IMG/VR virus record: IMGVR_UViG_2531839433_000003
Length of the DNA stretch: 21,842 bases
DNA from: a virus
Taxonomy: Duplodnaviria; Heunggongvirae; Uroviricota; Caudoviricetes
Reading direction: 5' to 3' (one strand)
In this document: positions 1 to 19,009 of the stretch, piece by piece
How the letters are laid out: each line of letters starts with the position of its first letter
Position numbering within the stretch: the first letter of the stretch is position 1
Translations under genes and position numbers: made by a program
Notes under the pieces: generated by a model
Seen by the model: the letters and a program-made list of their open reading frames with translations, nothing else
What the model was told of the DNA's origin: nothing
Database searches by the model: none

Positions 1-1053
1 TTACGGGGTAATGCCAACCGCTGCCGCCACTTTGTCGCCACTTGGCAATGTTGCCAGAGGATTGAAACGGAGCGCCGTTTCCAGATGATCCGGTGCCAGA
101 TGTGCGTAACGCATAGTCATTTTTATATCGTGGTGTCCGAGAATTTTTTGTAAGGCCAGGATGTTTCCACCCGACATCATGAAGTGCGCCGCAAACGTAT
201 GGCGCAGAACGTGTGTCAGTTGACCGCGAGGGAGCACGATAGACGTTTTTTCCATCACGGATAAAAATTGAAAATAGCAGTCTGTGAAGAAATTGAACCC
301 ATCAAGCGCCATGATCTCTTCGTAAAGCTCTTTACTGATAGGGATGCTTCTGTTTTTCTTCCCCTTCGTTCTTACAAAGGTAATTCGGTATTTGGTCACT
401 TGCGAGCGGGTAAGATTTATTGCTTCTCGCCAGCGTGCGTCTGTGCTTAGGCATATCTTGACTACCAGTGCCAGAATTGGGTCCTGACGTTTGCAATCAG
501 CCAGCAGTTCAACAATCTGCTCATGGGTAAGCCATGCCATTTCTTTTTCTGCGATGGTGAATTTTCGCATGTTCTCCAGTGGGTTCGGATACGACCATTC
601 GCCCAGGCGGGATAGTTCGCTAAAAACACTACTTAGATAGCTTTGCTCCAGGTTAATGGTGACCGGGCTTGCTCCTTTCTTCCATTTCTCGCTGAAGTAG
701 ATCTCTCCTGTCAGGCGTTTATCTCTATAGTGGGCAAACATTTTAGAGGTGAGATCGGTTGCAAGGGGATTGCCCAGAGCGTCAACCATCAACAGCAGTT
801 TGTCATAGACATGCTGCCCAGCTGTCAGAGATTTACCATGTAGTTTGAACCATAGCTCAACCACGTCTTTCAATGTCCGACGATCCACTGGTTCGCCCAG
901 CCAGGGCTTTGCTTCGGTTTCTTCCATCGTGTGACGCTCAAAAGCCAGAGCTTCGCCTTTAGTGGCGAATTGTTTACGCACACGACGCCCACTACGTCCG
1001 GCGGGGTAACATTCGCAAAGCCATTTCCCTGTGGTGAGTTTTCGTACTGCCAT
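1..1053 (-). CDS. int: Tyrosine integrase, P2/186 family; the last 13 codons are encoded by the att core plus host flank
   Basis: 350 aa ORF whose translation resembles P2 Int along its length, including the C-terminal catalytic region (LTHVLRHTFAAHF...GHHDIKMTMRYAHL). Sits at the prophage left end, transcribed toward the att repeat. Confidence 0.88.
   Translation of the reverse strand: MAVRKLTTGKWLCECYPAGRSGRRVRKQFATKGEALAFERHTMEETEAKPWLGEPVDRRTLKDVVELWFKLHGKSLTAGQHVYDKLLLMVDALGNPLATDLTSKMFAHYRDKRLTGEIYFSEKWKKGASPVTINLEQSYLSSVFSELSRLGEWSYPNPLENMRKFTIAEKEMAWLTHEQIVELLADCKRQDPILALVVKICLSTDARWREAINLTRSQVTKYRITFVRTKGKKNRSIPISKELYEEIMALDGFNFFTDCYFQFLSVMEKTSIVLPRGQLTHVLRHTFAAHFMMSGGNILALQKILGHHDIKMTMRYAHLAPDHLETALRFNPLATLPSGDKVAAAVGITP
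19..40. repeat. attL core: 22-bp direct repeat cgctgccgccactttgtcgcca, matching 18988..19009 with one mismatch
   Basis: Read directly: identical at 21 of 22 positions to 18988..19009. One copy lies inside the int 3' end, the other immediately after the ogr stop, which is where a P2-type att lies. Confidence 0.7.
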
Positions 1054-1058
1054 AAAGA

Positions 1059-1078
1059 AGCCCTCATATCAGAGGGCT
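1059..1078 (-). terminator. Stem-loop between the HEPN gene and int; possible attenuator or weak terminator
   Basis: 7-bp perfect inverted repeat agccctc / gagggct with a 6-nt loop. On the minus strand it is followed by a partly T-rich tract and overlaps the int ribosome-binding site. Confidence 0.3.
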
Positions 1079-1141
1079 AAATTTAACTGTGCTTATATAC
1101 AGTGGTCAATGTATGATTTCATTAAAACAGACAAGGGTGTG

Positions 1142-1777
1142 CTATAAATCTGCTCTTAAATTATTTTCAGGGTCATTAGCGATATTTCTTTGTGAATTAT
1201 TAACTAAATCAGAAAATGTATTATCTCGGTCGTTAGATTTAGTTAATCCAATATTCGTATTTGTCGCTTCTAATTCAAGTATTGATGACTCCATCTTCTG
1301 AATAATGGCTACACTATCTATAAAATAGTCGAAAATATATTGAAATGATACTGTGGGGCTTTTCCCATGAGCGAAATCATTTCTGGCTCTATTTAAAGAT
1401 TTCAACGAATCACGTAATTTATTTGAATGCGGATCGTTCTTGATTTTGTCCTTAAAGTTGTTACACCAGTTATTATCAAATGAACCAAGTGCCTTACAAA
1501 TATTATCGTAATTAGGGTTCATTGAACTATTTCTGAATTTTTCATCAATGAATCTTTGTATTTGTTCACTATGTTGATCATATTTATGATCGCTAATGAT
1601 TGTTTTGAAAGAATATTCAATGGTTCCGCAGGTTCTAATAATTGAATATCGTGTTAAATATTTAACAATAGTTGTAGTGGGGCCAGAAGATTCTATCATC
1701 TTCTCTATACTCTCAAGTTCCTTTAAACAATCTATAATGCTATTTTTAGCATTATTATTAACGATATTGAATGCCAT
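1142..1777 (-). CDS. HEPN-motif protein (R-x4-6-H), predicted RNase effector; resembles the MAE_28990/MAE_18760-type HEPN family
   Basis: Motif LNRARNDFAHGKS (RNxxxHG) in the C-terminal third of an AT-rich ORF. GGAG lies 7 nt upstream of the ATG at 1777; the ORF track's longer start at 1810 has no ribosome-binding site. Overlaps the DUF262 gene by 20 nt. Confidence 0.55.
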   Translation of the reverse strand: MAFNIVNNNAKNSIIDCLKELESIEKMIESSGPTTTIVKYLTRYSIIRTCGTIEYSFKTIISDHKYDQHSEQIQRFIDEKFRNSSMNPNYDNICKALGSFDNNWCNNFKDKIKNDPHSNKLRDSLKSLNRARNDFAHGKSPTVSFQYIFDYFIDSVAIIQKMESSILELEATNTNIGLTKSNDRDNTFSDLVNNSQRNIANDPENNLRADL

Positions 1778-2912
1778 AAAGAAACTCCAGTGCCATTGAA
1801 ATTCTTCCATGTATATTTTCTATCTGCATTGTACCAGATGTGATATGTGACCGAAATGTCTGATTTTGTAGTAACTCATTTCTTTTATGCTCTAGATCGT
1901 TAGTGTTTATATCTTCACCTGAATTTAATGCAATGGATGTTGCGACATATAATGCATCAAAAATGGTTGGATAAAAACGACGACGTATACGTGATGGATC
2001 TGATTGGATTATATTAAAGAATGCATCTGGTCCTATATTATCATGAATAAAATTAATGGTGTTTTCAAAATCGGTTTTAATGGTGTCGATCATGTCAGAG
2101 GTGTTATTTGCTTTATCACCCATATATTCATTAAGGAGTTTTTTTAGCGAAATATTTGCTGGTTCATGACTCTTTATTTTCTGCGTGTTAAGAGCCAAGC
2201 CTCTTAGAATGAATTCCATATCTCTCATTCGTGCATCTGGTTTATTAGAACCGAATAAAGTACGCCATTTGATATTATTGTTTAGTTCTATCAATAGAGT
2301 ATTTAATTTCCCTTGATATACGCAATTACGTATTTCTTGAGCCATTAGTGAACGTCCACCAGTATTTATACGCTCAAAAATTTGATATAGGCTAGTATCA
2401 TCGTTCGACGGAACGGTTTGCTCAAAGATTATAGCGTGTATAGTTGTTGAGCGAATTTTCTTTTTTTCTGAAACTGTAAGTTCATTAAAGGCCTTACCAC
2501 GCCATTTTGCATTAATTTTTCTACTATCGGAAAGTTTAAAGACTCTACTATCTTTTGACCATATACCTGTCACATAATCATAGACAGTCATGATTCTCTG
2601 AAAACCATCTATAATGAGTTTGTTTTCGTCAGACGTATTTGCTAAAAAAATACTCGGAACAGGAAGACCTAGCAATAATGAGTCTATAAATCTACTGGCT
2701 TCGACTTTATCCCAAACATAATTTCTTTGAAGTTCTGGTTTCTGAAGTTCGCCCTCATCATACATTGTAATAAGTTCTCTAAAAGATAAATCGGCCCCCC
2801 ATGAGTTTATATTGTATAAATCATCATTTGAGTAAGAATCGTTCTGTTCTTCTTCGATTATCTCTATTGTGTCCTCAAGAGAATTATTATTGATATAATT
2901 GCTGTCAGTCAT
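1758..2912 (-). CDS. DUF262 protein (ParB-like / GmrS N-terminal NTP-binding domain), no fused HNH/DUF1524 domain
   Basis: Motifs PELQRNYVW and IIDGFQR (the DGQQR-type motif) near the N-terminus. Start chosen at MTDSNY (ATG 2910..2912), which has GAGG 5 nt upstream and sits 1 nt after the CI-like stop codon. Confidence 0.72.
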   Translation of the reverse strand: MTDSNYINNNSLEDTIEIIEEEQNDSYSNDDLYNINSWGADLSFRELITMYDEGELQKPELQRNYVWDKVEASRFIDSLLLGLPVPSIFLANTSDENKLIIDGFQRIMTVYDYVTGIWSKDSRVFKLSDSRKINAKWRGKAFNELTVSEKKKIRSTTIHAIIFEQTVPSNDDTSLYQIFERINTGGRSLMAQEIRNCVYQGKLNTLLIELNNNIKWRTLFGSNKPDARMRDMEFILRGLALNTQKIKSHEPANISLKKLLNEYMGDKANNTSDMIDTIKTDFENTINFIHDNIGPDAFFNIIQSDPSRIRRRFYPTIFDALYVATSIALNSGEDINTNDLEHKRNELLQNQTFRSHITSGTMQIENIHGRISMALEFLYGIQYR

Positions 2913-2913
2913 T

Positions 2914-3864
2914 TTAACCTCTAACATTATTAATGGATAATACGATCTTTGCAATAAATTCGATTTCGTTTATTGAACATTCAAAAACTATGTTTTTATT
3001 TTTTACTTGAATTTTTTCATTAGGTAATTTAGTGATTGTTCGAATACTGATATCTCCATCAATACCAACGATCCACTCGCCATCTATAATATTATTGAAT
3101 CTTTTTTCACAAATGTAAAAGTTATTTACATTTTCAATCAAACAAGGAAATATCGTATTTTCAGGTAACAGATTTTTATCAAATATCGAGTTCCCGCTCT
3201 CAATTAATTTTGCATTATTTAGAGTAAACTTTGGTATATTTATACAGTTTAAACTGCTATTTTTTTCTATTTTATCTCCTTTCCCAAAGGCTAACCACGT
3301 GATGGATACTCCTGTTTCGATAGCACACTGAATTACCCAATCAGCAGGAAAAGTATCACGCATATATCGTGTGGCTAACGTGCTTTTTGAAATACCAAGG
3401 TGATCAGCTAAGGCTTGACGTGTCTTGTAACCGTAAGCTTCAACAATTCGTTCTATTACTGCTTTTCCTCCATGAGTGAAATTCATGTGGATTTCATTAT
3501 CGAACAGAGTGGGGGAAGAGTGAACTTTGTCGCAAAGTCCATCTTCGGTTTGTTTTTCAGCATGTTGTTCTAGTGAAGAAGATGACATTCTTTCTTTAAC
3601 ACCTGAACCAAATGCTAGCCATTCAATTGATGCGCCTGTCTCCATCGAGCAGATAACAACCCAATCTGCTGGAAATGTATCGCGGGCATATCTGTTAGCC
3701 ATCGTGCTTTGGGAAATACCTAGGTGATTACAGAATGCCTGGCGTGACTTGAAGCCATAAGCCATGAGGATCCGCTCAATTACTTTCTGACCACCGCGAT
3801 TCTGTATGACAGCGGCTTTCATATCGTCATTCATATGGCGAAATGTGAATTTTTGAGTTGACAT
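2914..3864 (-). CDS. CI-like repressor with two tandem Phage_CI_repr-type HTH domains and an AT-rich C-terminal domain
   Basis: Two internally repeated segments (around residues 14-88 and 120-195) share the pattern ERI..AYG.K.RQA...HLGIS.ST.A.RY.RDTFPADWV..C..ETG.S..WLAFG.G, which resembles the phage 186 CI N-terminal domain. Divergent from the Apl-like gene, in the cI position. Confidence 0.65.
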   Translation of the reverse strand: MSTQKFTFRHMNDDMKAAVIQNRGGQKVIERILMAYGFKSRQAFCNHLGISQSTMANRYARDTFPADWVVICSMETGASIEWLAFGSGVKERMSSSSLEQHAEKQTEDGLCDKVHSSPTLFDNEIHMNFTHGGKAVIERIVEAYGYKTRQALADHLGISKSTLATRYMRDTFPADWVIQCAIETGVSITWLAFGKGDKIEKNSSLNCINIPKFTLNNAKLIESGNSIFDKNLLPENTIFPCLIENVNNFYICEKRFNNIIDGEWIVGIDGDISIRTITKLPNEKIQVKNKNIVFECSINEIEFIAKIVLSINNVRG

Positions 3865-3888: not shown

Positions 3889-3918
3889 GTTTTGTGATGT
3901 TGTTATCACGATTAAAAC
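3889..3918. promoter_or_regulatory. Nested palindrome GTTTT-GTGAT-N6-ATCAC-gatt-AAAAC; candidate repressor/Apl operator
   Basis: Inverted repeats read directly in the cI/apl divergent intergenic region. Confidence 0.3.
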
Positions 3919-3952
3919 CAGCTCACCACAAGCTAAAAGGAGATGTTGCATC

Positions 3953-4174
3953 ATGACCCCTAACATTTCAATAACTCTGAATACACCACACGTCACAATC
4001 GAGCGTTATAGCGAACTTACTGGTCTTTCAATCGACACAATCAACGATATGCTGGCAGATGGTCGCATCCCTCGGCATCGTCTTCGTAAAGACAAAAAAA
4101 GAGAAAAGGTAATGATCAACCTTGCTGCTCTTACCGTTGATGCACTTACTGATTGCAATGTTGTATTCAACTAG
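3953..4174 (+). CDS. apl: Apl/Cox-like small HTH excisionase/regulator
   Basis: 73 aa, first rightward gene opposite the CI-like gene, GGAG upstream, HTH-like segment [24 protein letters not shown]. Position matches 186 apl / P2 cox. Confidence 0.55.
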
Positions 4175-4206: not shown

Positions 4207-4716
4207 ATGTTTGATTACCAAGTTTCCAAACATCCACATTTTGATGAAGCCTGTCGTGCATTCGCGTTGCGCCACAACCTGGTGCAACTGGCAGAACGTG
4301 CAGGCATGAATGTGCAGATTCTGCGGAACAAGCTGAACCCAGCTCAACCTCATTTATTAACCGCACCAGACATCTGGCTGCTTACCGATCTGACTGAGGA
4401 TTCAACGCTGGTAGATGGTTTTCTGGCACAGATTCATTGTCTGCCATGTGTACCAATTAATGAGGTGGCAAAAGAGAAACTGCCACATTACGTCATGAGT
4501 GCAACCGCAGAGATCGGGCGTGTTGCGGCAGGTGCGGTATCTGGCGATGTAAAAACCAGTGCAGGTCGTCGTGATGCTATCAGCAGCATTAACTCTGTAA
4601 CACGACTGATGGCGCTGGCTGCTGTTTCATTGCAGGCCCGTTTACAGGCTAATCCTGCGATGGCGAGCGCAGTTGATACCGTGACTGGCCTCGGTGCTTC
4701 ATTCGGTTTGCTGTGA
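4207..4716 (+). CDS. cII: CII-like transcriptional activator (phage 186 CII type)
   Basis: 169 aa, the same length as 186 CII. N-terminus [20 protein letters not shown] and internal [28 protein letters not shown] match my recollection of 186 CII. Confidence 0.65.
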
Positions 4717-4723
4717 GGTGCTT

Positions 4724-4924
4724 ATGCTTACGAAAGAACCATCATTTGCATCGCTGCTGGTAAAGCAAAGCCCGGCAATGCACTACGGTCACGGCTGGAT
4801 CATGGGTGAGGATGGTAAACGCTGGCATCCATGCCGTTCACAAGATGAATTGCTGGCAGAACTATCTACGAAAAAACGGGGGAACAAATGGCTATTAATG
4901 GCGCTGCAGCAACTGTTCCATTAA
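4724..4924 (+). CDS. Hypothetical early-operon protein, 66 aa
   Basis: ORF with GAGGTG 5 nt upstream of the ATG, in the position of 186 fil. Confidence 0.4.
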   Translation: MLTKEPSFASLLVKQSPAMHYGHGWIMGEDGKRWHPCRSQDELLAELSTKKRGNKWLLMALQQLFH

Positions 4925-5229
4925 GCCCCGGTGAACGCCTGAATGGACTTAATCACATTGCGGAGTTAAGGGCGAAAGTTTTTGGCCTGAATATTGAGTC
5001 AGAGCTTGAGCGGTTTATTAAAGATATGCGTGATCCACGGGATATCAATAATGAACAAAATAAACGGGCACTGGCTGCCATATTCTTTATGGCAAAAATT
5101 CCAGCTGAACGTCATAGCATCAGCATTAATGAGCTGAACACTGACGAAAAGCGGGAGCTGATTAAAGCAATGAATCATTTTCGTGCAGTGGTGAGCTTAT
5201 TTCCCAGACGGCTAACCATGCCGAATTAA
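4888..5229 (+). CDS. Hypothetical early-operon protein, 113 aa
   Basis: ORF with GGGGGAA ribosome-binding site; overlaps the previous ORF by 37 nt. Confidence 0.4.
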   Translation: MAINGAAATVPLSPGERLNGLNHIAELRAKVFGLNIESELERFIKDMRDPRDINNEQNKRALAAIFFMAKIPAERHSISINELNTDEKRELIKAMNHFRAVVSLFPRRLTMPN

Positions 5230-5296
5230 CCAACTAATGAAATTAATGGCGTAAACCCGCCGGGCATCCCTTTATCTAAATTCAGGAGAATTGATT

Positions 5297-5530
5297 ATGC
5301 GTAATATTGAAACCCTCACGACTAAAACCGGACCGGATGATGCAGGGCTTAATATTTTACTGACAGAGGCTCGTCTGGAAGAACGCCGGGCAAGGGCTGA
5401 AGCAATGGCAGCTCGCCTTGATAACCTGGCGTGTCATATCACATCCCGCCAACTAAACCACGTCGAAGCGGCAGAACTGCTGCGTGTGACTGCTGAAGCA
5501 ATCCAGAACGAAGCGCAGGAGATCCACTGA
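5297..5530 (+). CDS. Hypothetical early-operon protein, 77 aa
   Basis: AGGAG 8 nt upstream of the ATG; stop overlaps the next start (TGATG). Confidence 0.4.
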   Translation: MRNIETLTTKTGPDDAGLNILLTEARLEERRARAEAMAARLDNLACHITSRQLNHVEAAELLRVTAEAIQNEAQEIH

Positions 5531-5757
5531 TGGCTGATGCAATGGATCTCGTACAGCAGCGAGTTGAAGAAGAACGCCAACGTCATATCCGTGCTGCCCG
5601 TGCCAAAACGCCGGGCGTGTCCCGCGTGCTTTGCGTTGAGTGTGAAGCGCCAATTCCGCCAGCACGCCGCTGTGCCATTCCGGGGGTGCAGCTTTGCATT
5701 ACCTGTCAGGAAATCGCAGAGCTGAAAGGCAAACATTACAACGGAGGTGCTGTATGA
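5530..5757 (+). CDS. TraR/DksA-family C4 zinc-finger protein
   Basis: CxxC-N17-CxxC (CVEC...CITC) in a 75 aa protein; ATGA overlap with the following dam gene. Confidence 0.7.
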   Translation: MADAMDLVQQRVEEERQRHIRAARAKTPGVSRVLCVECEAPIPPARRCAIPGVQLCITCQEIAELKGKHYNGGAV

Positions 5758-6611
5758 GCACCATCCTGAAATGGGCGGGAAATAAAACCGCCATTATGTC
5801 CGAACTGAAAAAACACCTTCCTGCTGGCCCGCGACTGGTTGAACCTTTCGCGGGTTCCTGTGCTGTGATGATGGAGACGGATTACCCCAGCTATCTGGTT
5901 GCGGATATTAATCCTGATTTAATCAACCTCTATAAAAAGGTTGCTGCTGATTGTGAATCGTTTATATCTCGCGCCAGAGTTTTATTTGAGATCGCAAACA
6001 GGGAGGTGGCTTATTACAACATAAGGCAGGAGTTTAATTACTCCACTGAAATTACTGATTTCATGAAAGCGGTATATTTCCTGTATCTCAATCGTCACGG
6101 TTACCGTGGTTTATGTCGCTATAACAAGAGCGGGCATTTCAACATTCCCTACGGTAATTATAAAAATCCGTATTTCCCTGAAAAAGAAATTCGCGCATTT
6201 GCAGAAAAGGCCCAGCGAGCAACGTTTATCTGCGCCAGCTTTGATGAAACGCTGGCGATGTTGAAGGCGGGGGATGTGGTGTATTGCGATCCGCCGTATG
6301 ACGGTAAGTTTTCCGGCTATCACACTGATGGTTTCACTGAAGATGACCAGTATCACCTGGCATCTGTTCTTGAACATCGGTCATCAGAAGGACATCCGGT
6401 CATTGTTTCTAACAGTGACACATCCCTGATCCGTTCGCTGTATCGCAATTTTACTCACCACTACATCAAGGCAAAACGCAGCATCGGTGTGGCAGCTGGC
6501 GAGGGTAAATCAGCAACAGAAATCATTGCTGTTTCCGGGCCGCGCTGCTGGGTGGGATTTGATTATTCGCGTGGCGTGGATAGTTCTGCCGTGTACGGAG
6601 TACGTGCATGA
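5754..6611 (+). CDS. dam: DNA adenine methyltransferase, Dam-like (GATC N6-adenine)
   Basis: N-terminal LKWAGNK SAM-binding motif and DPPY catalytic motif (DNA 6288..6299); collinear resemblance to E. coli Dam. Translationally coupled on both sides. Confidence 0.85.
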
Positions 6612-9022
6612 GCCATGCCGATATGAACAACTGCTGCGGCTTTAACGAGGCTGCCGCATCGTTCTCATGGAACAGCCCGAAAAAGGCCATTAACCCTTAT
6701 CTGGACCCGGCGGAAGTTGCGCCGGTTTCTGCGCTTTCAAACCTGATCACTCTGTACGCTGCCGATAACGAGCAGGAACAGCTGCGCCGCGAGGCACTGA
6801 GTGATCAGGTCTGGGAGCGTTATTTCTTTAATGAATCCCGTGATCCTGTCCAGCGCGAAATGGAGCAGGATAAGCTCATTAGTCGGGCAAAGCTGGCGCA
6901 TGAGCAGCAGCGTTTTAATCCAGATATGGTCATTCTGGCGGACGTCAATGCCCAGCCTTCCCATATCAGCAAGCCGCTGATGCAACGTATTGAATACTTC
7001 AGCAGCCTTGGCAGGCCAAAGGCTTATTCCCGCTATTTGCGTGAGACGATTAAGCCATGTCTGGAACGGCTGGAGCATGTACGCGACAGTCAGCTATCCA
7101 CTTCTTTTCGCTTTATGGCAAGCCATGAAGGGCTGGACGGCCTGCTGATTCTGCCTGAAATGAGTCAGGATCAGGTGAAACGCCTGTCCACCCTTGTTGC
7201 TGCGCATATGAGCATGTGCCTTGATGCAGCTTGTGGCGATTTGTATGCCACCGATGACGTTAAGCCTGAAGAAATCCGCAAGACATGGGAAAAGGTGACA
7301 GCAGAAACCCTGCGACTGGATGTCATACCGCCTGCGTTTGAGCAACTCCGCCGGAAAAGAAACCGCCGTAAACCCGTGCCTTATGAACTCATTCCGGGTT
7401 CGCTGGCGCGTATGTTGTGCGCCGACTGGTGGTACCGGAAATTATGGAAGATGCGTTGCGAATGGCGGGAAGAGCAGTTGCGTGCTGTTTGCCTGGTCAG
7501 CAAAAAAGCATCTCCCTATGTCAGCTATGAAGCCGTGATGCATAAACGTGAGCAGCGCCGTAAGTCGCTGGAGTTTTTCCGTTCTCATGAACTGGTGAAC
7601 GAAGACGGCGACACGCTGGACATGGAGGATGTGGTAAACGCCAGCAGCAGCAACCCTGCGCATCGCCGCAATGAGATGATGGCCTGTGTTAAAGGTCTGG
7701 AGCTTATCGCGGAAATGCGTGGTGACTGCGCCGTTTTCTACACCATCACCTGTCCGTCACGTTTCCATTCCACGCTAAATAACGGCAGGCCCAACCCGAC
7801 CTGGACAAATACGACGGTAAGACAAAGCAGTGATTATCTGGTCGGCATGTTTGCTGCATTTCGTAAGGCGATGCACAAAGCCGGATTGCGCTGGTATGGC
7901 GTGCGGGTGGCTGAGCCGCATCATGACGGTACAGTTCACTGGCACCTGTTGTGTTTTATGCGCAAAAAAGATCGCCGCGCCATTACTGCTTTGTTGCGTA
8001 AGTTTGCCATTCGTGAAGACCGCGAGGAGCTGGGTAATAACACGGGACCACGCTTTAAGTCTGAGCTGATAAACCCGCGCAAAGGTACGCCAACAAGCTA
8101 CATCGCGAAATACATCAGTAAGAACATTGACGGGCGTGGTCTGGCTGGCGAGATCAGCAAGGAAACGGGTAAATCCCTGCGTGATAACGCTGAATACGTT
8201 AATGCCTGGGCGTCTCTGCATCGTGTTCAGCAATTCCGCTTCTTTGGCATTCCGGGGCGTCAGGCTTACCGTGAACTGCGATTGCTGGCTGGTCAGGCGG
8301 CAAGGCAACAGGGGGACAAAAAAGCAGGTGCGCCGGTACTGGATAACCCGCGCCTTGATGCAATCCTGGCTGCTGCTGATGCTGGTTGTTTTGCCACCTA
8401 CATCATGAAGCAGGGCGGCGTACTGGTTCCCCGCAAATATCACCTCATCAGAACTGCTTATGAAATCAACGAAGAACCGACCGCATATGGCGATCACGGT
8501 ATTCGTATTTATGGCATCTGGTCACCCATTGCAGAGGGCAAGATCTGCACTCATGCGGTGAAGTGGAAAATGGTTCGTAAGGCCGTTGACGTTCAGGAGG
8601 CGGCAGCCGACCAGGGCGCTTGCGCCCCTTGGACTCGTGGCAATAACTGTCCCCTTGCTGAAAATTTGAGCCAACAAGGGAACGACAAATCAGCTGATGG
8701 GGATACCAGAACGGACATTACCCGCATGGATGACAAGGAGTTGCACGATTACCTGCACAGTATGAGCAAAAAAGAGCGCCGGGAACTGGCTGCAAGGTTA
8801 CGCCAGGTGAAACCGAAACGGCGTAAAGACTACAAACAGCGAATTACAAACCATCAGCGACAGCAGCTCGTCTATGAACTGAAGTCCAGAGGATTTGATG
8901 GCAGCGAGAAAGAAGTCGATTTACTCCTTCGCGGCGGCAGTATTCCGTCAGGAGCAGGCCTGCGTATCTTCTATCGGAACCAGCGTTTGCAGGAAGATGA
9001 TAAGTGGCGGGAGCTGTATTAA
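6608..9022 (+). CDS. Rolling-circle replication initiator, P2 gpA / 186 RepA family
   Basis: 804 aa with the metal-binding HWHLL motif (7936..7950) and active-site tyrosine motif YIAKYISK (8099..8122). Start overlaps the dam stop. Confidence 0.85.
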
Positions 9023-9363: not shown

Positions 9364-9373
9364 GGTGACTTTT

Positions 9374-10465: not shown

Positions 10466-10489
10466 GCCCGCCAGAACTGGCGGGCTTTT
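10466..10489 (+). terminator. Rho-independent terminator on the plus strand
   Basis: GC-rich hairpin gcccgcc(agaact)ggcgggc followed by TTTT. Confidence 0.5.
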
Positions 10490-10534
10490 GCGTAGATCAT
10501 GCACCTGCATGAAAACCACTACATAAAGCGGGCA

Positions 10535-10553
10535 GGCGTGGCGGGGATACGAG
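10535..10553. other. Probable cos site (P2/186-type cohesive-end sequence)
   Basis: ggcgtggcgggga matches the first 13 nt of the P2/186 cohesive end as I recall it (GGCG[A/T]GGCGGGGAAAGCA). It is embedded in a GC-rich structured island between the replication side and the portal side, where cos lies in P2. Confidence 0.45.
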
Positions 10554-10780
10554 CGCGCGCCGCGGGTTGAAATAGTAAAATTCACTTAGCCTCAGGCCCG
10601 CTGATGGTTTTCTTCTGAAAGGGAGGGCGCGTTTTTGTGCAATCTTGTTTGAAGGGATTTAAATAAATGTTGAATGTGTTCCGGAGTTGGCTGTAGATTT
10701 AGTGTTCTGTCACAAGTTGCAGTGATAGGTAGCAAACCTTTAAAAGGTTCTGCTATTGTTTCATTAAAGATTTATAGTCT

Positions 10781-11380: not shown

Positions 11381-11459
11381 ATAAATTTTTGCGCAGTGCT
11401 ACAATGCTGCGCCAAACATCCACCACCGGATGATGAGGCTTGACCTCTAAGAGGAAATC

Positions 11460-11639
11460 ATGACTATGACGCATAGTGACAAGAAAGCTCAGAAGCATTA
11501 CTCAGTATCTGATGTTTTCAGCCGTATGGGCGTCGCGATGGAAGAACTACTTCAAGCGGCCCCACATATGATGCAGGACTGCAAATTTGAAGGAAATGAG
11601 CTGCATGGTAAGCTCAAAGAAAAGCAGAAAGCTGCTTAA
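11460..11639 (+). CDS. Small hypothetical protein, 59 aa
   Basis: GAGG 5 nt upstream of the ATG; followed within 25 nt by a strong intrinsic terminator. Below the ORF-track length cut-off; translated by hand. Confidence 0.5.
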   Translation: MTMTHSDKKAQKHYSVSDVFSRMGVAMEELLQAAPHMMQDCKFEGNELHGKLKEKQKAA

Positions 11640-11661
11640 TTCCATGAAATGCGTTTTGCAT

Positions 11662-11688
11662 GAAGCCCGGTAATACCGGGCTTTTTTA
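11662..11688 (+). terminator. Rho-independent terminator
   Basis: Hairpin agcccgg(taata)ccgggct followed by TTTTTT; sits between the convergent small gene and the portal 3' fragment. Confidence 0.7.
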
Positions 11689-11694
11689 TGCTTG

Positions 11695-11815
11695 CTAGTC
11701 AGTATTAAGCTCATATGGATTGAATCGGACTACCTCTTCACCAAGCCATTCATTTAGCTCCAGCAATCGCTTTTGTAACGGTACTATTTCGTTTCTTGTG
11801 AAGACGCGACTGGCC
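11695..11815 (-). pseudogene. Portal gene (P2 gpQ type) 3' fragment, separated from the rest by the IS66-family insertion
   Basis: Minus-strand frame read by hand through the IS junction encodes ...RLLELNEWLGEEVVRFNPYELNTD then a stop at 11695..11697. Confidence 0.5.
11808..11815. repeat. Target-site duplication gactggcc, left copy
   Basis: Identical 8-mer directly abuts both IS ends (11808..11815 and 14515..14522). Confidence 0.8.
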
Positions 11816-11845
11816 GTAAGCGGCTCGTCAGAACCGTATTGATAT

Positions 11846-13417
11846 TTACTGAGAGCTCAGATCAACTTTCCAGGGCAACAGATCGCGTACCCGGTTTGCC
11901 GGCCAGTCCTGGATATGTTCAATGACGTAGCGCAGCCACTTTTCTGGCTCCACATTGTTCAGACGGCATGTGCCGATCAGCGAGTACAACACCGCCGCAT
12001 GTTCACCACCGCTGTCGGAACCCGCGAACATCCACTTTTTCCGGCCTACGGCCACTCCCCGTAAGGCGTTCTCTGCGATGTTGTTGTCGATTTCCACCCA
12101 GCCATTACTGCAGTACACGTTCAGTGCATCCCACTGTTTCAGCAGGTATGCGAACGCTTTTGCCGTATCTGAGTGACGCGACAGTGTTTTCATCTGTTGC
12201 TGTATCCAGTCATACAGTGACTGCATCAGTGGCGCGGCTCTGGTTTTTCTTGCCGCCAGACGCTGTTCTGCTGAACAGCCCCGGACCTCTGCCTCGATGG
12301 CATACAGTTCACCGATACGCTGCAGGGCTTCCGTGGTGATGTCGGTGGGCGCTCTTGCATGCACATCGTGGATTTTTCTCCGGGCATGAGCCATACACGC
12401 GGCTTCCGTTATTCTGCCGGATTCGTATAACGCCCGGTAACCACCGTAAGCATCGGCCTGAAGCACACCGCTGTAACCGGCCAGGTGATTTTGTGGATGG
12501 ATACCTTTCCGGTCCGGACTGTACGCGAACCAGACCGCCGGGGGCATCTGTGAACCGGCGTTACGGTCATCACGGACGTAGACCCACAGCCGGGCTGTCC
12601 GGGTTTTACCGCTGCCCGGCTCCTGGACCGGGACGGGGATATCATCAGCATGGACTTTACCGGGCATCAGCACATACTGGCGCAGGACGTCATACAGCGG
12701 CTCCAGTAGTTCAGCAACGGCACCTGTCCAGCGCCCCAGTGTGGCACGGCTCAGCTCCACACCCTGACGGCGGTATATCTCTGACTGGCGGTATAACGGC
12801 AGATGGTCTGCATATTTTCCGGTGACGACATGGGCCAGGAGCCCCGCTCCGGCATAACTGCGTGCAATGGGTTTTGAAGGTACTGGTGCCTGCACGATAT
12901 GGTCGCACCGACAACAGGCCAGTTTCGGACGTTGTGTTTCGATAACCTTAAAGGCGCTGCTGATAAGCTCCAGTTGCTCTGACACATCACATCCCAGAGA
13001 ACTGAGTTCACCACCACAGGCAGGACAGCATTCCTCTTCCGGCCGGATAACCCGGGTTTCACGGGGAAGTGAGGCCGGTAACGGTTTACGGGCTGAAGAC
13101 TGGCGCAGGGCGGATGGCAGTACCGGGTCATATTGCTCACCCAGCGTTTCCGCCATTTCTTCCTGAAGTGCGCTGATTCGCTCCTGTGCTTCCTGTATCT
13201 GCCGTTCGGTTTTTGCACGAAGTTTTTCTGAGCTTTTACCGAACTGCATACGTTGCAGTTTCGCAACCAGCGCCTTCAGCCGGTTGATTTCGGAAGCATA
13301 AGCCGCCACCCGCTGTGAGAGCAGGCGGTTGTATTCAGCCATCTGGCGTATGGTGTCCTGTTGCGTCTGCAACAGTGCCCGCAGGCGGGCGTTCTCATGA
13401 GCAAGTGAGGTGTCCAT
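11846..13417 (-). CDS. tnpC: IS66-family transposase (TnpC)
   Basis: 523 aa with an N-terminal coiled-coil/leucine-zipper region and a Cys-rich segment, as in IS66-family TnpC. Confidence 0.85.
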
Positions 13418-13436
13418 ATCCTCACTTTACAACGGG

Positions 13437-13784
13437 TTATATGCGGATTCCAGCGCGTTCCGTTCGTTTCGGGTGCTTCCAGTTGATACCTTCAAGAAGC
13501 ATGGATAACTGAGCCGGAGTAAGGTGCACCTTGCCGTCACGGGTGACTGGCCAGACGAAGCGGCCCCGCTCCAGGCGTTTGGTGAAGAGGCACAGTCCGT
13601 CACTGTCAGCCCACAACACTTTTATCTGGTCACCCCGGCGTCCGCGGAAGATGAACAGGTGTCCGGAGAACGGGTCATCCTTCAGGACGTTCTGAACTTT
13701 TGATGCCAGGCCGTTAAAGCCATTTCGCATATCGGTGATACCTGCAACCAGCCAGATACGCGAACCTGCAGGGAGAGATATCAT
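13437..13784 (-). CDS. tnpB: IS66-family accessory protein TnpB (Orf2)
   Basis: 115 aa, MISLPAGSRIWLVAGITDMR..., as in IS66 Orf2; ATGA overlap with the upstream ORF. Confidence 0.8.
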   Translation of the reverse strand: MISLPAGSRIWLVAGITDMRNGFNGLASKVQNVLKDDPFSGHLFIFRGRRGDQIKVLWADSDGLCLFTKRLERGRFVWPVTRDGKVHLTPAQLSMLLEGINWKHPKRTERAGIRI

Positions 13785-14461
13785 CAGTGGCTGCTCCCTT
13801 TTATTTCGCGGATAAGTGTCTGTAATAACGCCGGCGTCAGTTTACCTTTAAGCCTGAGAGTTCCGGCCGGCAGAACCAGCTCACAACACAGACTGTCGGA
13901 CGGTGTATTTATCTGCTCTGGTTCCTGTGCGGGGGCCGGGATTTTATTATCCGGCTCCGGCGTTAACGTCACGGGAAGCAGTGCCGGCATATTTTTTCCG
14001 GAAGGCAGCAGGCCACCTTTCCGGTATTGATGGCGCCAGTTGAAGAGCAGGTTATCGTTGATTCCGTTTTCCCGGGCGATCTGCGCCACACAGGCTCCGG
14101 GCTGCAGTGACTGCTCCACTAAGGCGATTTTAAACTCATAAGGGAAGTTGGGCCGCCGGGGACGTTTTTTTACCACGGGGGCTTCGGATATAACGGTGCT
14201 TTCAGGACGTACGACTGGTACCGTGGAAAATTGTCCGTAAAGGCAGGCATCAAGTTCCTGCTCCGACATGCCTGCGGGCAAAGGCCACGAAAGGCCAGCT
14301 CTCCGAAAGCGCACGAACATACTACAAACTGTTGATTTTGGTACACCCAGGCGACGCCCGGCCACAACCCGGGGTAAATGTTCTTCAAAGTGAAGACGTA
14401 AAGCTTCAGTGATCCAGGTCCGGTGTTTCATACGATAGTGTCCATTAAAAATGATGGACAT
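13784..14461 (-). CDS. tnpA: IS66-family accessory protein TnpA (Orf1); start uncertain
   Basis: First ORF inside the IS, leftward, coupled to tnpB. The true start may be the internal Met (MKHRTW...). Confidence 0.6.
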   Translation of the reverse strand: MSIIFNGHYRMKHRTWITEALRLHFEEHLPRVVAGRRLGVPKSTVCSMFVRFRRAGLSWPLPAGMSEQELDACLYGQFSTVPVVRPESTVISEAPVVKKRPRRPNFPYEFKIALVEQSLQPGACVAQIARENGINDNLLFNWRHQYRKGGLLPSGKNMPALLPVTLTPEPDNKIPAPAQEPEQINTPSDSLCCELVLPAGTLRLKGKLTPALLQTLIREIKGSSH

Positions 14462-14514
14462 TATTTTTGTAGAGCCGGAGGAAACAGACCAGACGGTTTA
14501 AATGAGCCGGTTAC

Positions 14515-14522
14515 GACTGGCC
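14515..14522. repeat. Target-site duplication gactggcc, right copy
   Basis: Identical to 11808..11815. Confidence 0.8.
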
Positions 14523-15439
14523 TTTTCCACATCCCCAAAACCGCCGGTATTGTTGGGAATGATACCCATCATTTGCGGCGGCACACGATGCGCCGCCATC
14601 ATGTCGTCCCGGCTCACGTTCTTGATATTCAGGAACTCATCCTTCGCCGCCACTTCTGACAACGGGATAATCTGAAGCCCATCCTTTTTGCCGTTAGGCG
14701 AGTACATAAACAGGTTACGGAAGTTACCAGGACCTTTGGCACTTTTCATTGCGTTGCGGAGGTTGTTCACATCCTCCTGGTTCTGCGCGGCGTCGGTCAT
14801 GTACATGATGAAGCCCGCATGGCTGCCGTTGATGTAATACTTCCGGCGGAACAGCGTGGCGGACTCGTTGAGCAGGGCTGACGGAATGGCAGAAAGATAA
14901 CCGGGCAGGCCGTAGATCTCCTGGTTGATGTCCGGCTCCATCAGATGAAAAATGCTGCCTTTCGTGAACTGATACGGCTGGGTTGTCATACCGTATTGCA
15001 CAAACCAGTAGGTATCCAGGTCTAACCCGCGTCGGGTGTATTTTGCCAGAGCAGGCTCAAGGGCTATAACTTCACCGAAGCGGTTCGTGCGTTTCTCCAG
15101 GTAGGCGTTACCAAAAACCAGATAGTCCTGTACAAAACGCGAAAAAGCCTGCTGGCTGAGCAGCGGGTGAGGGATGTAGGTGCTGGTCAGAATGTTGCAC
15201 TTTACTGCAATCGGGGAACTATGATGAACGGCAGCGCGGAAGGTGCGCGCCAGTCCGTCAAAGCTGACGGGCGGCTCATACCAGCGGTCCATCTGTACGC
15301 ATTCCACATAATCCAGCAGCTCTCGGCGGTCCAGAACAGGAACGGGATCGCCGAAGCTGAATGCTTCGGCTGTAGTTTGACTTTTAAGCTGGATCTGTTT
15401 CGTCGCCGCAGCGCGGTTCTTCTTACTCTTTCCCATCAA
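14515..15439 (-). pseudogene. Portal gene (P2 gpQ type) 5' portion, interrupted near its 3' end by the IS
   Basis: ORF 14498..15439 translates to a P2 Q-like portal; its last few codons read into IS sequence. Start overlaps the terminase stop (ATGA). Confidence 0.75.
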
Positions 15440-17202
15440 AAAATCTCCACAATATTGCTGGTATTGGCGGATTCGCCCTGCAGCGGTTCGTTAAACAGTG
15501 CGTGCATCGTTGCCCAGGCCAGATCGGCGTGGCTGGCTTCTTCGCTGCGGCTGGCTTCATAGGTCGGGCGGTTGCCACTGGCGGTGGTGGCGCGACGGAT
15601 TGCCATAAAGGACTGCGCTATGTCGGTGTGTCCGGCGTCAAACTCCAGACGGCGGTGGCTGATAATGTCGTAGGCCTTGAGTACCAGGGCGTTTTTAACG
15701 TTGGGGTTGTAGACAAACTCCCGGACGGCAGGAAAAAACGCTTTCACGTTCTCGTAAACCCCGTGACCAACGCCGGTTGAGTCGATACCGATATAGGTCA
15801 CGTTGTACTGTTCGGTCAGTTTTTTGATGGCGTCCGCCTGGGCGCGGAAGTCCATTCCGCGCCACTGGTGACGCTCAAGAATGCGGAACTTACCGCCCGG
15901 CACGGCTGGCGGCGCCACCACCACGCATCCGGCGCTGTCGCCGTTCTGCGTACCTTTCGCCGGATCATATCCGATCCACACTTCGCGCCAGCCAAACGGG
16001 CGCAGGGCCAGTGCATGAAAGTCGGTCCAGACTTCCCAACTGTCCACCATGCACGCCTGCAGCTCGCTGAGTGGGAACACAGACGCGAGATCGTCCACGA
16101 ACTCACACATCAGCAGGTTCTGGTATTCGTCCGGGCTGTACTCCATGCGCAACTGATCGAGGTCGAACAGGTTACAGCCGCCGCGCACCGCATCTTCCAC
16201 AGTGACTATCTGGCGGTACTGCCCGTCTGCGCACAGCAGGCCGGGGGCCAGATTGCTGTGGGACAGGTCGATGTCCACCTTATCGGCTTTGTTGCGCCCT
16301 CGGTTGAATAGCGCACCGGACCAGAACGGATAAGCACTGTGTGTCAGGCTGGATGGCGTGGAAAAATAGGTTTGTCGCCATTTTTTGTGAATAGCCATAC
16401 CGGAAGCCACTTTGCGCAGCTCCTGGAATTTCGGTATCCAGAAATATTCATCCAGATACAGGTTGCCGTGGTAACTCTGGGCCGTGCGGGCATTGGTGCC
16501 GAGGAAGTACAGCGTGGCCCCGTTAGGAAGCACCATCGGATCGCCTTTCAGCTCCACCTCCACTTCTTTGGCGAAGTCGATGATGTACTGCTTAAAGACG
16601 TGGGCCTGAGCCTTGCTGGCGGAAAGGAAAATCTGGTTACGCCCGGTTAGCAGGGCGTCAATCAGGGCTTCACGGGCAAAATAGAAGGTCGCGCCGATCT
16701 GGCGTGACTTCAGCAGGTTGCGGATGCGGTTGGTTTTTCCGGCTTCCCACCAGTGGCGCTGGTAGTTGAACATGGAGGAATGGAAGATTTCTTCCAGCTT
16801 CTCAATCTGTTCATCGGTGAAAACGTTCTTTTCCGGCTGACGGCGCGGGCCTTTGTTGCGGTTGGCGACGTTAGGGTTTAAGTCGGCTTCGTTGCCGCCA
16901 TTGTTAAACTTGCCGATCCGCGCATGGCGCTCCGACTGGCGCGCCAGCAGGTCAATCTCTTTGAAATCTTTCCCTTCTTTGTGCTCCTTCATAATGAGCT
17001 GGCAGTAGCGTGCGGCGGTGGTGAGCTGCATCTGATCCAGCGGCCCATAGTCACCCCACTTGTCGCGTTTTTTCCAGCTGTGAACGGTTGCAACTTTCTC
17101 GCCCAGCATTTCAGCAATGCGGGCTACGCGGTATCCCTGAAAGTACAGCAGCATGGCCTGCCGACGGGGATCGAGATCTGCGGGTGTCAGTGTGGTGTTC
17201 AT
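15436..17202 (-). CDS. Terminase large (ATPase) subunit, P2 gpP type
   Basis: 588 aa, close to the 590 aa of P2 gpP; resembles it along its length; coupled to the portal gene. Confidence 0.85.
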   Translation of the reverse strand: MNTTLTPADLDPRRQAMLLYFQGYRVARIAEMLGEKVATVHSWKKRDKWGDYGPLDQMQLTTAARYCQLIMKEHKEGKDFKEIDLLARQSERHARIGKFNNGGNEADLNPNVANRNKGPRRQPEKNVFTDEQIEKLEEIFHSSMFNYQRHWWEAGKTNRIRNLLKSRQIGATFYFAREALIDALLTGRNQIFLSASKAQAHVFKQYIIDFAKEVEVELKGDPMVLPNGATLYFLGTNARTAQSYHGNLYLDEYFWIPKFQELRKVASGMAIHKKWRQTYFSTPSSLTHSAYPFWSGALFNRGRNKADKVDIDLSHSNLAPGLLCADGQYRQIVTVEDAVRGGCNLFDLDQLRMEYSPDEYQNLLMCEFVDDLASVFPLSELQACMVDSWEVWTDFHALALRPFGWREVWIGYDPAKGTQNGDSAGCVVVAPPAVPGGKFRILERHQWRGMDFRAQADAIKKLTEQYNVTYIGIDSTGVGHGVYENVKAFFPAVREFVYNPNVKNALVLKAYDIISHRRLEFDAGHTDIAQSFMAIRRATTASGNRPTYEASRSEEASHADLAWATMHALFNEPLQGESANTSNIVEIF

Positions 17203-17344: not shown

Positions 17345-18178
17345 ATGACAGTGAAAGCAAAGCGTTTTCGCATCGGGGTGGAAGGTGCCACCACCGACGG
17401 ACGCGAAATCCAGCGTGAATGGCTGGAACAGATGGCAGCCAGCTACAACCCGGCGGTGTATACCGCGCTGATTAACCTTGAGCACATCAAGTCTTATCTG
17501 CCGGACAGCACCTTTAACCGCTACGGCAAGGTGACGGCGCTGTTTGCTGAAGAAATCACGGAAGGTCCGCTGGCAGGCAAGATGGCGCTGTATGCCGACG
17601 TTGAGCCAACGGAGTCCCTGGTGGAACTGGTGAAAAAAGGCCAGAAATTATTCACCTCTATGGAAGTCAGCCCGAAGTTCGCTGATACGGGCAAAGCCTA
17701 TCTGGTCGGCCTGGCTGCCACTGATGACCCTGCCAGTCTGGGTACGGAAATGCTGACATTCAGCGCCAGTGCAGCCCATAACCCGCTGGCAAACCGCAAG
17801 CAGAATCCTGCCAATCTCTTTACCGCTGCAGAGGAAACGGTGATCGAACTGGAAGAAATCCAGGACGACAAACCGTCCCTGTTTGCCCGCGTCACGGCGC
17901 TGTTTACCAAAAAAGAGCAATCCGATGACGCCCGGTTCTCTGATGTGCATAAGGCCGTGGAGCTGGTCGCCACTGAGCAGCAGAACCTGAGCGCACGCAC
18001 CGAAAAATCCCTGTCTGAGCAGGAAGAACGCCTGTCTGAGCTGGAGACTGCCCTGCAGGCACAGCAAACCGCCTTTAACGAACTGGTGGACAAGCTGAGT
18101 CATGAAGACAGTCGCCAGGACTACCGCCAGCGTGCAACAGGCGGTAACGCCCCCGCTGACACTCTGACCAATTGCTGA
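17345..18178 (+). CDS. Capsid scaffolding protein, P2 gpO type
   Basis: 277 aa (P2 gpO is 284 aa), divergent from the terminase gene, with an acidic coiled-coil C-terminal half. Confidence 0.8.
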   Translation: MTVKAKRFRIGVEGATTDGREIQREWLEQMAASYNPAVYTALINLEHIKSYLPDSTFNRYGKVTALFAEEITEGPLAGKMALYADVEPTESLVELVKKGQKLFTSMEVSPKFADTGKAYLVGLAATDDPASLGTEMLTFSASAAHNPLANRKQNPANLFTAAEETVIELEEIQDDKPSLFARVTALFTKKEQSDDARFSDVHKAVELVATEQQNLSARTEKSLSEQEERLSELETALQAQQTAFNELVDKLSHEDSRQDYRQRATGGNAPADTLTNC

Positions 18179-18194
18179 TGGAGCACAAAACCCG

Positions 18195-18572
18195 ATGAAG
18201 AAGAATACCCGCTTTGCTTTTAACGCTTACCTGCAGCAGCTGGCGCGTCTGAACGGTGTGGCAGTTGAAGAACTGTCCAGCAAGTTCACCGTGGAGCCGT
18301 CTGTGCAGCAGACGCTGGAAGACCAGATCCAGCAGTCCGCCGCTTTCCTGACGCTGATTAACGTCACGCCAGTGACTGAGCAGTCCGGTCAGCTGCTGGG
18401 GCTGGGAGTTGGCAGCACCATTGCCGGAACCACTGACACCACCGCGAAAGAGCGTGAACCTGTCGATCCGACGCTGATGGTCGATGTGGAATATAAATGC
18501 GAGCAGACCAACTTTGACACGGTGCTGACCTACGCGAAGCTGGACCTGTGGACGGGGTGGGCTCTTAGATGA
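18195..18572 (+). pseudogene. Major capsid protein (P2 gpN type), N-terminal about 125 aa only
   Basis: Begins MKKNTRFAFNAYLQQLARLNG...KFTVEPSVQQTL like P2 gpN, but terminates after 125 aa where about 357 are expected. Confidence 0.7.
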
Positions 18573-18573
18573 T

Positions 18574-18678
18574 GCGGAATGGACCATTACGACTCTGACG
18601 CATACCGTCAGCCCCGATAACGGTTTTACAACCAGTCTGGAGCTTGAAGTGAGGATTGATGATTTCGAAATGGAATGA
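18574..18678 (+). pseudogene. Possible C-terminal remnant of tail gene D fused out of frame to the capsid fragment
   Basis: The +1 frame reads ...TITTLTHTVSPDNGFTTSLELEVRIDDFEME then stop, about 90 nt upstream of ogr, where D lies in P2. Assignment is by position and frame only. Confidence 0.3.
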
Positions 18679-18768
18679 TTCTTCGCAATGGAGAACTTTT
18701 AAGTTTGCAAAATGGAATAATGCGGTATCATTATTGTGAATTTAGCAAAAATGGGGAGAACTCGAAAA

Positions 18769-18987
18769 ATGATGATTTGCCCACTGTGTGGAAGTGCCGC
18801 CCATACTCGCAGCAGTTTTCAGGTATCTTCATTGACCAAAGAACGTTACAACCAGTGCCAGAACATTAACTGCAGCCATACTTTTGTTACCCATGAAACT
18901 TTTGTTCGTTCGATTGCAACGCCAAAAGAGTCAAATCCGGTTCAGCCGCATCCAATGAAATCAGGACAGGTGGCGCTCTCTCTTTGA
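18769..18987 (+). CDS. ogr: Ogr-type zinc-finger late transcription activator
   Basis: 72 aa, MMICPLCGSAAHTRSS...KERYNQCQNINCSHTF, parallel to P2 Ogr (CPLC...KERYHQCQNVNCSATF); last prophage gene before attR. Confidence 0.85.
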   Translation: MMICPLCGSAAHTRSSFQVSSLTKERYNQCQNINCSHTFVTHETFVRSIATPKESNPVQPHPMKSGQVALSL

Positions 18988-19009
18988 CGCTGCCGCCATT
19001 TTGTCGCCA
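18988..19009. repeat. attR core: 22-bp direct repeat cgctgccgccattttgtcgcca
   Basis: See attL; begins at the base after the ogr stop codon. Confidence 0.7.

Follow-up and report, generated by a model that had tools for sequence, protein, structure and literature searches.

The 22-bp direct repeats near the ends of a defective 186/P2-family prophage as probable arm-type integrase sites

The window analysed here, a stretch of 21,842 nucleotides of viral DNA, carries two copies of a 22-bp direct repeat that are, at a probability of about 0.88, the P-arm and P'-arm integrase sites of a defective 186/P2-family prophage residing at the PhiECO1 integration site. The copies, CGCTGCCGCCACTTTGTCGCCA at 19..40 and CGCTGCCGCCATTTTGTCGCCA at 18988..19009, both lie on the plus strand and differ at a single base, in agreement with the positions and sequence reported in the preliminary description of this DNA. 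The left copy falls within int (ORF 1..1053, minus strand), inside its final 14 codons, and the right copy begins directly after the ogr stop codon (18985..18987). Exactly two matches to the 22-mer were found when the whole window was scanned at up to three mismatches, and none of 100 dinucleotide-preserving shuffles of the window yielded a match. The preliminary description had also recognized a P2-family prophage of about 19 kb, running from int on the left to ogr on the right and far below the length of an intact relative; gene content and relatives bear this out, and the prophage can be assigned to the 186 subtype. What does not stand is the use of the repeats as attL and attR: they were correctly seen, but wrongly interpreted.

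The attachment core was found to be the 14-bp sequence AACAAAAAACCCAT, which is identical in attL, attR, attP and the attB of empty-site E. coli genomes, and which sits at the breakpoints of host and phage homology. The attR core occupies 19065..19078 (plus strand) and forms the true right end of the prophage, as given by the sequence shared among attL, attR and attB and by the PhiECO1 coordinates. Its twin, the attL core, is located at 3913..3926 of the longer locus (L001), 74-87 bp to the left of window base 1, and is outside the window because the window begins at the int stop codon. Measured from core to core, the prophage is 19,152 bp long. The empty genomes read ...GATAACAAAAAACCCATCAACC... 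at attB, while attL reads ...GATAACAAAAAACCCATTTATG... and attR reads ...GGCAACAAAAAACCCATCAACC.... The rcdA-ybjL site is uninterrupted in 4227 of 5426 complete E. coli genomes, and in the roughly 1,200 occupied genomes that remain the break lies at query positions 229-242, the start of the core. Furthermore, the published ends of PhiECO1 in E. coli HS, 916812-948276 (Nilsson and Haggard-Ljungquist, 2011; PMC3448106), coincide exactly with both copies of AACAAAAAACCCAT.

On the right side, homology to the empty site resumes at 19065, or at 19053 by alignment extension, which is 44-56 bp past the repeat and not at 19010. The possibility that these two starts reflect two types of site was rejected, as both empty-site loci have an identical attB; the start at 19053 arises because the P arm imperfectly resembles the left side of attB (22/26 bases), and the aligner runs through this similarity. 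The core itself consists of the last stem bases and the U-tract of the ybjL intrinsic terminator (19066..19111, minus strand), for which folding gave a -21 kcal/mol hairpin with UUUUUUGUU behind it, and this terminator is therefore intact at attR. A terminator scan of 18650..19300 found none, because the ybjL hairpin loop exceeds the 8-nt limit of the tool.

When the attR arm, the core and the attL arm were joined into a predicted attP, the resulting sequence aligned without gaps to Klebsiella phage KP12 (632/644). In KP12, ogr, attP and int form one contiguous stretch, and both 22-bp copies are present on a single attP, 172 bp apart and flanking AACAAAAAACCCAT. Each copy is composed of two tandem 11-mers. 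The predicted P' arm pair of 186-type Int arm-type sites (19..40, plus strand) comprises TGCCGCCACTT at 22..32 and TGTCGCCACTT at 33..43 in the 3' end of int, 93 bp from the end of the attL core. The predicted P arm pair (18988..19009, plus strand), TGCCGCCATTT and TGTCGCCATCG, follows the ogr stop and begins 77 bp before the attR core. The two pairs thus occupy both arms of attP, at -77 and +93 from the core, and are absent from attB. Against the arm-type site YAYCGCCAYTY predicted for phage 186, the four 11-mers match at 10, 10, 10 and 8 of 11 positions, with TGTCGCCATCG, the second 11-mer of the right copy, off the consensus at its final two positions. In addition, TGCCGCCACTT equals the published arm-site consensus of 186-type integrases, tgccGCCActt (PMC3448106). 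A third P-arm site, in inverted orientation, may be represented by GAGCGCCACCT (18968..18978, minus strand; 8/11 to YAYCGCCAYTY), a weak candidate in the last ogr codons; 186 likewise carries an inverted site upstream of its own P-arm pair.

The integrase belongs to the type expected to recognize such sites. The int gene (1..1053, minus strand) encodes a tyrosine integrase of 350 aa with an N-terminus of the 186 arm-recognition type, whose first 45 residues align with the Int proteins of 186 and PSP3. Residues W11, E14 and Y16 are common to these phages, whereas P2 Int has Y, D and R at the discriminator positions, which were flagged in earlier work (PMC3448106). At the opposite end of the protein, the arm-site region codes for the final 14 aa (SGDKVAAAVGITP). 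Since the left copy is coding, part of its conservation could derive from the protein; the non-coding nature of the right copy, together with the sites outside int in 186 and in E. coli HS, argues against such an origin.

The arm motif is also retained among relatives. PSP3, with an Int of 55% identity, has an identical 19-mer in the 3' end of its int gene, and the motif was likewise seen in 186, SEN8 and ESSI2_ev129, which, like PSP3, have other cores or targets. In the E. coli HS prophage, 350 bp of inserted DNA lie between int and the arm pair and take the place of the C-terminal tail of Int, and the arm pair stays beside the core. A survey of 31 distinct viral-contig loci with Int proteins 55-99% identical compared the zone around the int stop with 77 kb of background. 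Herein, the density of CGCCAY was 4.0 per kb around the int stop versus 0.64 per kb in the background, a six-fold difference, and 14 tandem CGCCAY pairs spaced 10-12 bp apart were found in the scanned zones versus none in the background. The scanned zone held no motif in 9 of the 31 loci, mostly those with shorter, HS-type Ints, where an insertion probably shifts the sites beyond that zone.

Taken together, these features suggest a mechanism in which the N-terminal arm-binding domain of the 186-type Int would bind both 22-bp copies, a physical interaction that we infer from sequence. In the circular phage, both copies lie on one attP, 77 bp before and 93 bp after AACAAAAAACCCAT, and strand exchange takes place in the core, formed by the stem end and U-tract of the ybjL terminator in the rcdA-ybjL interval. 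Integration then leaves the two arm pairs slightly inward of attL and attR, respectively, an arrangement that mimics terminal direct repeats because the exchange occurs in the core.

The preliminary description had instead proposed that the repeats are the attL and attR cores, that the element is the 18.97 kb between them, and that excision recombines the two copies. The repeat is indeed real, unique and located near both prophage ends, beside int and ogr; nevertheless, this interpretation retains practically no credibility. As a crossover core, the 22-mer failed on three counts, namely a copy in attB, a homology boundary inside the repeat, and a single copy in attP. The comparison with genomes lacking the insertion, which that description had itself suggested, placed the junction away from the repeat: no match to the 22-mer, searched with the 19-mer core of the repeat, was found in the empty-site loci (L002 and L003), and host homology starts only at 19065. 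The attP holds two copies rather than one, and the intact prophage at the same site has its published ends at the 14-bp core. Bases 1..18, previously read as flanking DNA, are the last six codons of int; phage DNA on the left extends 92 bp past the repeat (18 bp in the window and 74 bp outside), and on the right it covers 19010..19064, all of which is contiguous in the KP12 attP. The argument that the int 3' end and the position after ogr are where attL and attR of a P2-type element are expected is equally mistaken, as annotated P2 has its P and P' arm Int sites there, and not the crossover core.

It is also very unlikely that the repeats bind another architectural or regulatory protein of attP, such as Apl/Cox, IHF or CI, instead of Int. 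The attP regions of P2 and 186 do contain Cox or Apl sites and IHF sites, but in the records of both phages these are separate and lie between the core and the arm sites, while it is the CGCCAY repeats that carry the Int arm-site annotation. Moreover, the motif follows the N-terminal type of Int, as indicated by published work (PMC3448106) and by the residue comparison. A different direct repeat, AAAACAATAAGTT, present in two copies between the core and the P' arm pair, is a better candidate than the 22-mers for Apl or IHF. Finally, the repeat might be functionless, either the remnant of a duplication or a side effect of coding constraint at the Int C-terminus. The left copy does encode GDKVAAAV in the Int tail, and the tail of PSP3 Int is similar (GDKVAAEV). 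However, the non-coding right copy still keeps 21 of 22 bases, the sites of 186 and the HS prophage lie outside int, the motif is strongly enriched with regular spacing across relatives, and it matches an independently published consensus, which makes this explanation highly improbable.

Comparison with well-described relatives places the element within known diversity. In the 186 attP (NC_001317), Int arm-type sites of the form YAYCGCCAYTY are predicted, with three on the left side of attP and two on its right, together with IHF and Apl sites and a lysogenic-operon terminator beside the core. A scan of 186 recovered the same CGCCAY core motif and direct tandem pairs 11 bp apart on both arms. 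The 186 Int is 54% identical to that of the element, and the switch genes cI, apl, cII and fil are the same. The two differ in core and target, 186 using the 3' end of a tRNA-Ile gene (ileY) and the element the ybjL terminator between rcdA and ybjL, and also in the P' sites, which lie outside int in 186 with orf69 in between, whereas those of the element overlap the int 3' end.

P2 resembles the element in layout. Its attP (NC_001895) is annotated with Int P arm, IHF, core, Cox and Int P' arm features, and the order of ogr, terminator or stop, P arm, core and P' arm inside the int 3' end is shared, as is the composition of each arm as a direct-repeat pair 11 bp apart. The P2 arms lie at -63/+87 from the core, compared with -77/+93 in the element; the P2 arm motif, TGTGGACA, is different, and P2 relies on a C/Cox switch, unlike the CI/Apl/CII genes found here. 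The closest likeness is to PhiECO1 of E. coli HS, PhiECO2 and PhiECO3 (Nilsson and Haggard-Ljungquist, 2011; PMC3448106) and to Escherichia phage 500465-1. These share the integration site and core with the element, are 94-99% identical to it over int, the early operon, Q-P-O-N and D-ogr, and carry identical arm-site pairs. In contrast to the element, which is deleted from N to D and has an IS66-family insertion in the portal gene, they are intact (about 31.5 kb in HS), and the cargo beside int and around cos differs.

The gene content between attL and attR follows the order int-cI-apl-cII...A-cos-Q-P-O-N...D-ogr, which is that of the P2/186 family (Peduoviridae), and is collinear with the E. 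coli HS prophage. Between int and cI lies a low-GC cargo of two genes (1142..2954, minus strand), encoding a HEPN (RiboL-PSP) protein and a GmrSD_N/DUF262 protein, which match the PADLOC models PD-T4-2_B and PD-T4-2_A/NsnA. The cI immunity repressor (2914..3864, minus strand; 316 aa) has an internally duplicated N-terminal HTH domain and is followed by an apl/cox-type excisionase and repressor gene (3953..4174, plus strand). The early operon (4207..9607, plus strand) encodes cII, fil, DUF5347, DUF2732, a TraR/DksA zinc finger, a Dam methylase, the replication endonuclease gpA and a DinI-like protein. A search for the 186 and P2 cos 19-mers at up to three mismatches found no match. Comparison by blastn-short with the corresponding region of 186 located a cos-like site (10535..10553, plus strand), GGCGTGGCGGGGA; it agrees with the 19-base cos of 186 over the first 13 bases only and is embedded in 51 bp of 86% identity to that region. 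The large (ATPase) terminase subunit, a homologue of P2 gpP (15436..17202, minus strand), the gpO capsid scaffold (17345..18178, plus strand) and the ogr/B-type zinc-finger activator of late genes (18769..18987, plus strand) are also present.

The prophage is short because about 16.1 kb, from the capsid gene to D, has been deleted; the loss runs from inside gene N to inside gene D and corresponds to 16,089 bp of HS-equivalent DNA. At the left edge only the 5' third of the major capsid gene (gpN) remains (18195..18551, plus strand), and at the right edge a 3' remnant of the late control gene D (18566..18678, plus strand). The junction is filled by 14 bp, ACGGGGTGGGCTCT (18552..18565, plus strand); 12 of these can be matched to lysis-region sequence in the intact HS prophage, which suggests two successive deletions. 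In addition, the portal gene, a homologue of P2 Q (minus strand), is divided into a 5' part at 14513..15436 and a 3' remnant at 11695..11814 by an ISCro1-like IS66-family element of 2699 bp (11816..14514, minus strand) that encodes tnpA, tnpB and a DDE transposase and has an 8-bp target duplication on either side (GACTGGCC; 11808..11815 and 14515..14522). The head, tail and lysis modules are accordingly incomplete: with the capsid gene cut at 18551, M to U all absent and the portal gene split, the prophage is defective. The retention of attL and attR, int, apl, cI, the replication genes, the cos-like site, the large terminase, ogr and the PD-T4-2-like defence pair could be read as a helper-dependent satellite in the making, excisable and packageable when mobilized by a co-infecting P2/186-type phage, although we regard this as highly unlikely.

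Altogether, these observations represent ordinary, already described biology, and as the site of integration, the consensus of the arm sites and the family of the prophage have all been published, the finding adds little in this respect. Its relevance lies in annotation. In P2/186-type prophages, the paired arm sites in the int 3' end and just after ogr constitute near-terminal direct repeats that can be mistaken for att sites. Such confusion is likeliest where a contig has been trimmed at the int stop codon by a prophage caller, as is the case for the window and most related IMG/VR contigs, in which the true att core is therefore left outside the sequence.

Family searches, together with RefSeq gene annotation for E. 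coli strain 504239 (NZ_CP025859.1), whose chromosome is identical here, identify the region as a 186-subtype P2-family prophage. Its genes run from int through a low-GC two-gene cargo to cI, apl, cII and fil, followed by small early genes, dam, replication gene A, a dinI-like gene and then cargo. Further right, an IS66-family element interrupts the portal gene; then come the genes for the large terminase subunit and the gpO scaffold, the capsid gene reduced to its first third, gene D reduced to its last 113 bp, and ogr. Next on the right is host DNA with ybjL, ybjM and grxA, and rcdA (ybjK) lies to the left, beyond the window. This gene order and a core-to-core length of 19,152 bp bear out the preliminary description in its view of a P2-type prophage shortened to about 19 kb.

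The same description took a 22-bp repeat for attL and attR. The repeat was found on the plus strand, as CGCTGCCGCCACTTTGTCGCCA (19..40) and CGCTGCCGCCATTTTGTCGCCA (18988..19009), with no further copy in the window at up to three mismatches and no match in 100 shuffles. As had been noted, the left copy lies within the 3' end of int and the right copy directly follows the ogr stop codon. The int gene (1..1053, minus strand) encodes a tyrosine integrase of 350 aa and has the left copy in its final 14 codons; ogr is a zinc-finger gene of the ogr/delta type. The suggested comparison with the empty site gave a different core. In insertion-free genomes, attB in the rcdA-ybjL interval reads ...TTTTAGATAACAAAAAACCCATCAACCTTGAACC..., and the left and right junctions of the occupied genome read ...TTTTAGATAACAAAAAACCCATTTATGTAAACGGG... 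and ...AATTTCAGGCAACAAAAAACCCATCAACCTTGAACC..., so that the common sequence is the 14-mer AACAAAAAACCCAT, not the 22-bp repeat. The attR core, at 19065..19078, is the sole copy of the 14-mer in the window. Because the window starts at the int stop codon, it lacks the attL core, which lies 74-87 bp left of base 1, at 3913..3926 of the flanked locus L001 (window coordinate + 4000). This start matches the clipping of related IMG/VR contigs, most of which (L015..L043 and others) stop at the int stop codon, exactly three bases past the int match; in this phage group, programs that call prophage boundaries seem to cut off the P' arm and att core systematically.

Three independent checks agree on the 14-mer as the prophage end. 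A 501-bp attB-spanning probe is unbroken in 4227 of 5426 complete E. coli genomes and breaks in the remainder at probe positions 229-242, the core start. In addition, the published ends of intact PhiECO1 of E. coli HS, 916812 and 948276 (Nilsson and Haggard-Ljungquist 2011, PMC3448106), coincide exactly with both copies of the 14-mer there. Furthermore, the predicted attP (attR arm, core and attL arm) matches the contiguous ogr-attP-int of Klebsiella phage KP12 (OM835953.1) at 632/644 positions, ungapped. This KP12 attP holds both 22-bp copies, with the core between them, and they are therefore not crossover sites; the attL/attR reading fails, arm sites having been mistaken for cores.

The 22-bp copies are very probably Int arm-type sites, to which Int would bind. 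The left copy consists of the tandem 11-mers TGCCGCCACTT and TGTCGCCACTT and the right copy of TGCCGCCATTT and TGTCGCCATCG; window 22..32 is identical to the 186-type consensus tgccGCCActt (PMC3448106). Relative to the core, the P arm pair (right copy) stands at -77 and the P' arm pair (left copy) at +93, compared with -63/+87 in the P2 record, where the P arm directly follows the ogr terminator and the P' arm lies within the int 3' end. For phage 186, RefSeq predicts YAYCGCCAYTY arm-type sites, three left and two right of attP, and a sequence scan found pairs with an 11-bp spacing on either arm, together with an additional inverted site upstream of the pair on the P arm. That inverted site has a weak counterpart here at 18968..18978. 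The Int N-terminus carries W11/E14/Y16, as in 186 and PSP3, whereas P2 has Y/D/R at these positions, which have been proposed to discriminate two arm-site types (PMC3448106). PSP3, with an Int 55% identical, has the same 19-mer within its int 3' end, and SEN8 and ESSI2_ev129 have comparable pairs. Across 31 distinct viral-contig loci (Int 55-99% identical), the arm motif is 6-fold enriched around the int stop, with 14 tandem pairs nearby versus 0 in 77 kb of background. In HS, a 350-bp insertion parts the P' arm pair from int and swaps the Int C-terminal tail (TSIASF in place of SGDKVAAAVGITP), yet the pair stays by the core; the site therefore belongs to attP, not to the int coding sequence. 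This insertion (1145..1493 of the HS locus L005), which carries an ORF of 89 aa, is analogous to orf69 of 186.

The stretch from the attL core to the P' arm pair contains AAAACAATAAGTT twice in direct orientation, at a spacing of 19 bp (L001 3946..3977; window -54..-23, outside it), and, next to these copies, the inverted CCACCA-type pair GGTTGGTGGTCAGTGGTGG. Sitting where 186 has Apl and IHF sites, these repeats are candidates for Apl/IHF sites or for additional Int sites. Read on the minus strand, the core makes up the U-tract and last stem bases of the intrinsic terminator of ybjL (-21 kcal/mol), which is kept at attR; at attL and in attP, this U-tract is preceded by a phage hairpin that would terminate the int transcript. 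The P arm beside the core (19039..19078) resembles host DNA left of attB (2975..3014 of the empty-site locus L002; TAAATTTCAGGCAAC versus TAAGTTTTAGATAAC) at 22/26 bases, core included, so the att similarity region exceeds the 14-bp identity, though imperfectly.

Between int and cI, where HS has just a small ORF, lies the low-GC (~31%) cargo (1142..2954, minus strand), with one gene for a HEPN RiboL-PSP protein and one for a GmrSD_N/DUF262 protein. Their matches to the PADLOC models PD-T4-2_B (1.6e-8) and PD-T4-2_A/NsnA (2e-55 and 1e-65) make this a candidate anti-phage system. The CI repressor (2914..3864, minus strand) has 316 aa versus 189 in HS; its N-terminal HTH domain is duplicated in tandem within the protein (residues 24-96 versus 132-204, 66% identical), which accounts for the extra length. 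The 88-bp spacer between cI and apl is consistent with 3864 being a genuine start. A conserved ~150-bp island (10412..10560) containing the cos-like site lies between two variable cargo stretches in 9608..11700, the counterpart of the variable cargo region beside cos in P2-like phages. For the ORFs there, the only matches are to PHROG families without a known function (phrog_7437, 4350, 2741).

Homology to the HS prophage reaches 18551 in the capsid gene and restarts at 18566 in gene D, with 16,089 bp lost: the small terminase subunit, head completion, lysis and all tail genes. The 14-bp filler at this junction (18552..18565), with TGG microhomology at its left joint, matches the HS lysis region (L005 19006) at 12 of 14 bases (chance probability ~0.01), which hints at two sequential deletions rather than one. 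The portal gene is split by a 2,699-bp ISCro1-like IS66 element (11816..14514) bordered by an 8-bp target duplication, GACTGGCC. Still intact are int, apl, cI, both att sites and the cos-like site at 10535.

Altogether, the repeat was a correct observation with a mistaken assignment, and the prophage family, integration site, arm-site consensus and attP layout are already in the literature or RefSeq annotations. The sole reading with any novelty, in which the remnant can be mobilised with the aid of a helper, has gene content as its one argument and is very improbable. Since the same N-D deletion junction occurs in only 6 of 5426 complete genomes, the element looks like a lineage-specific decay product.
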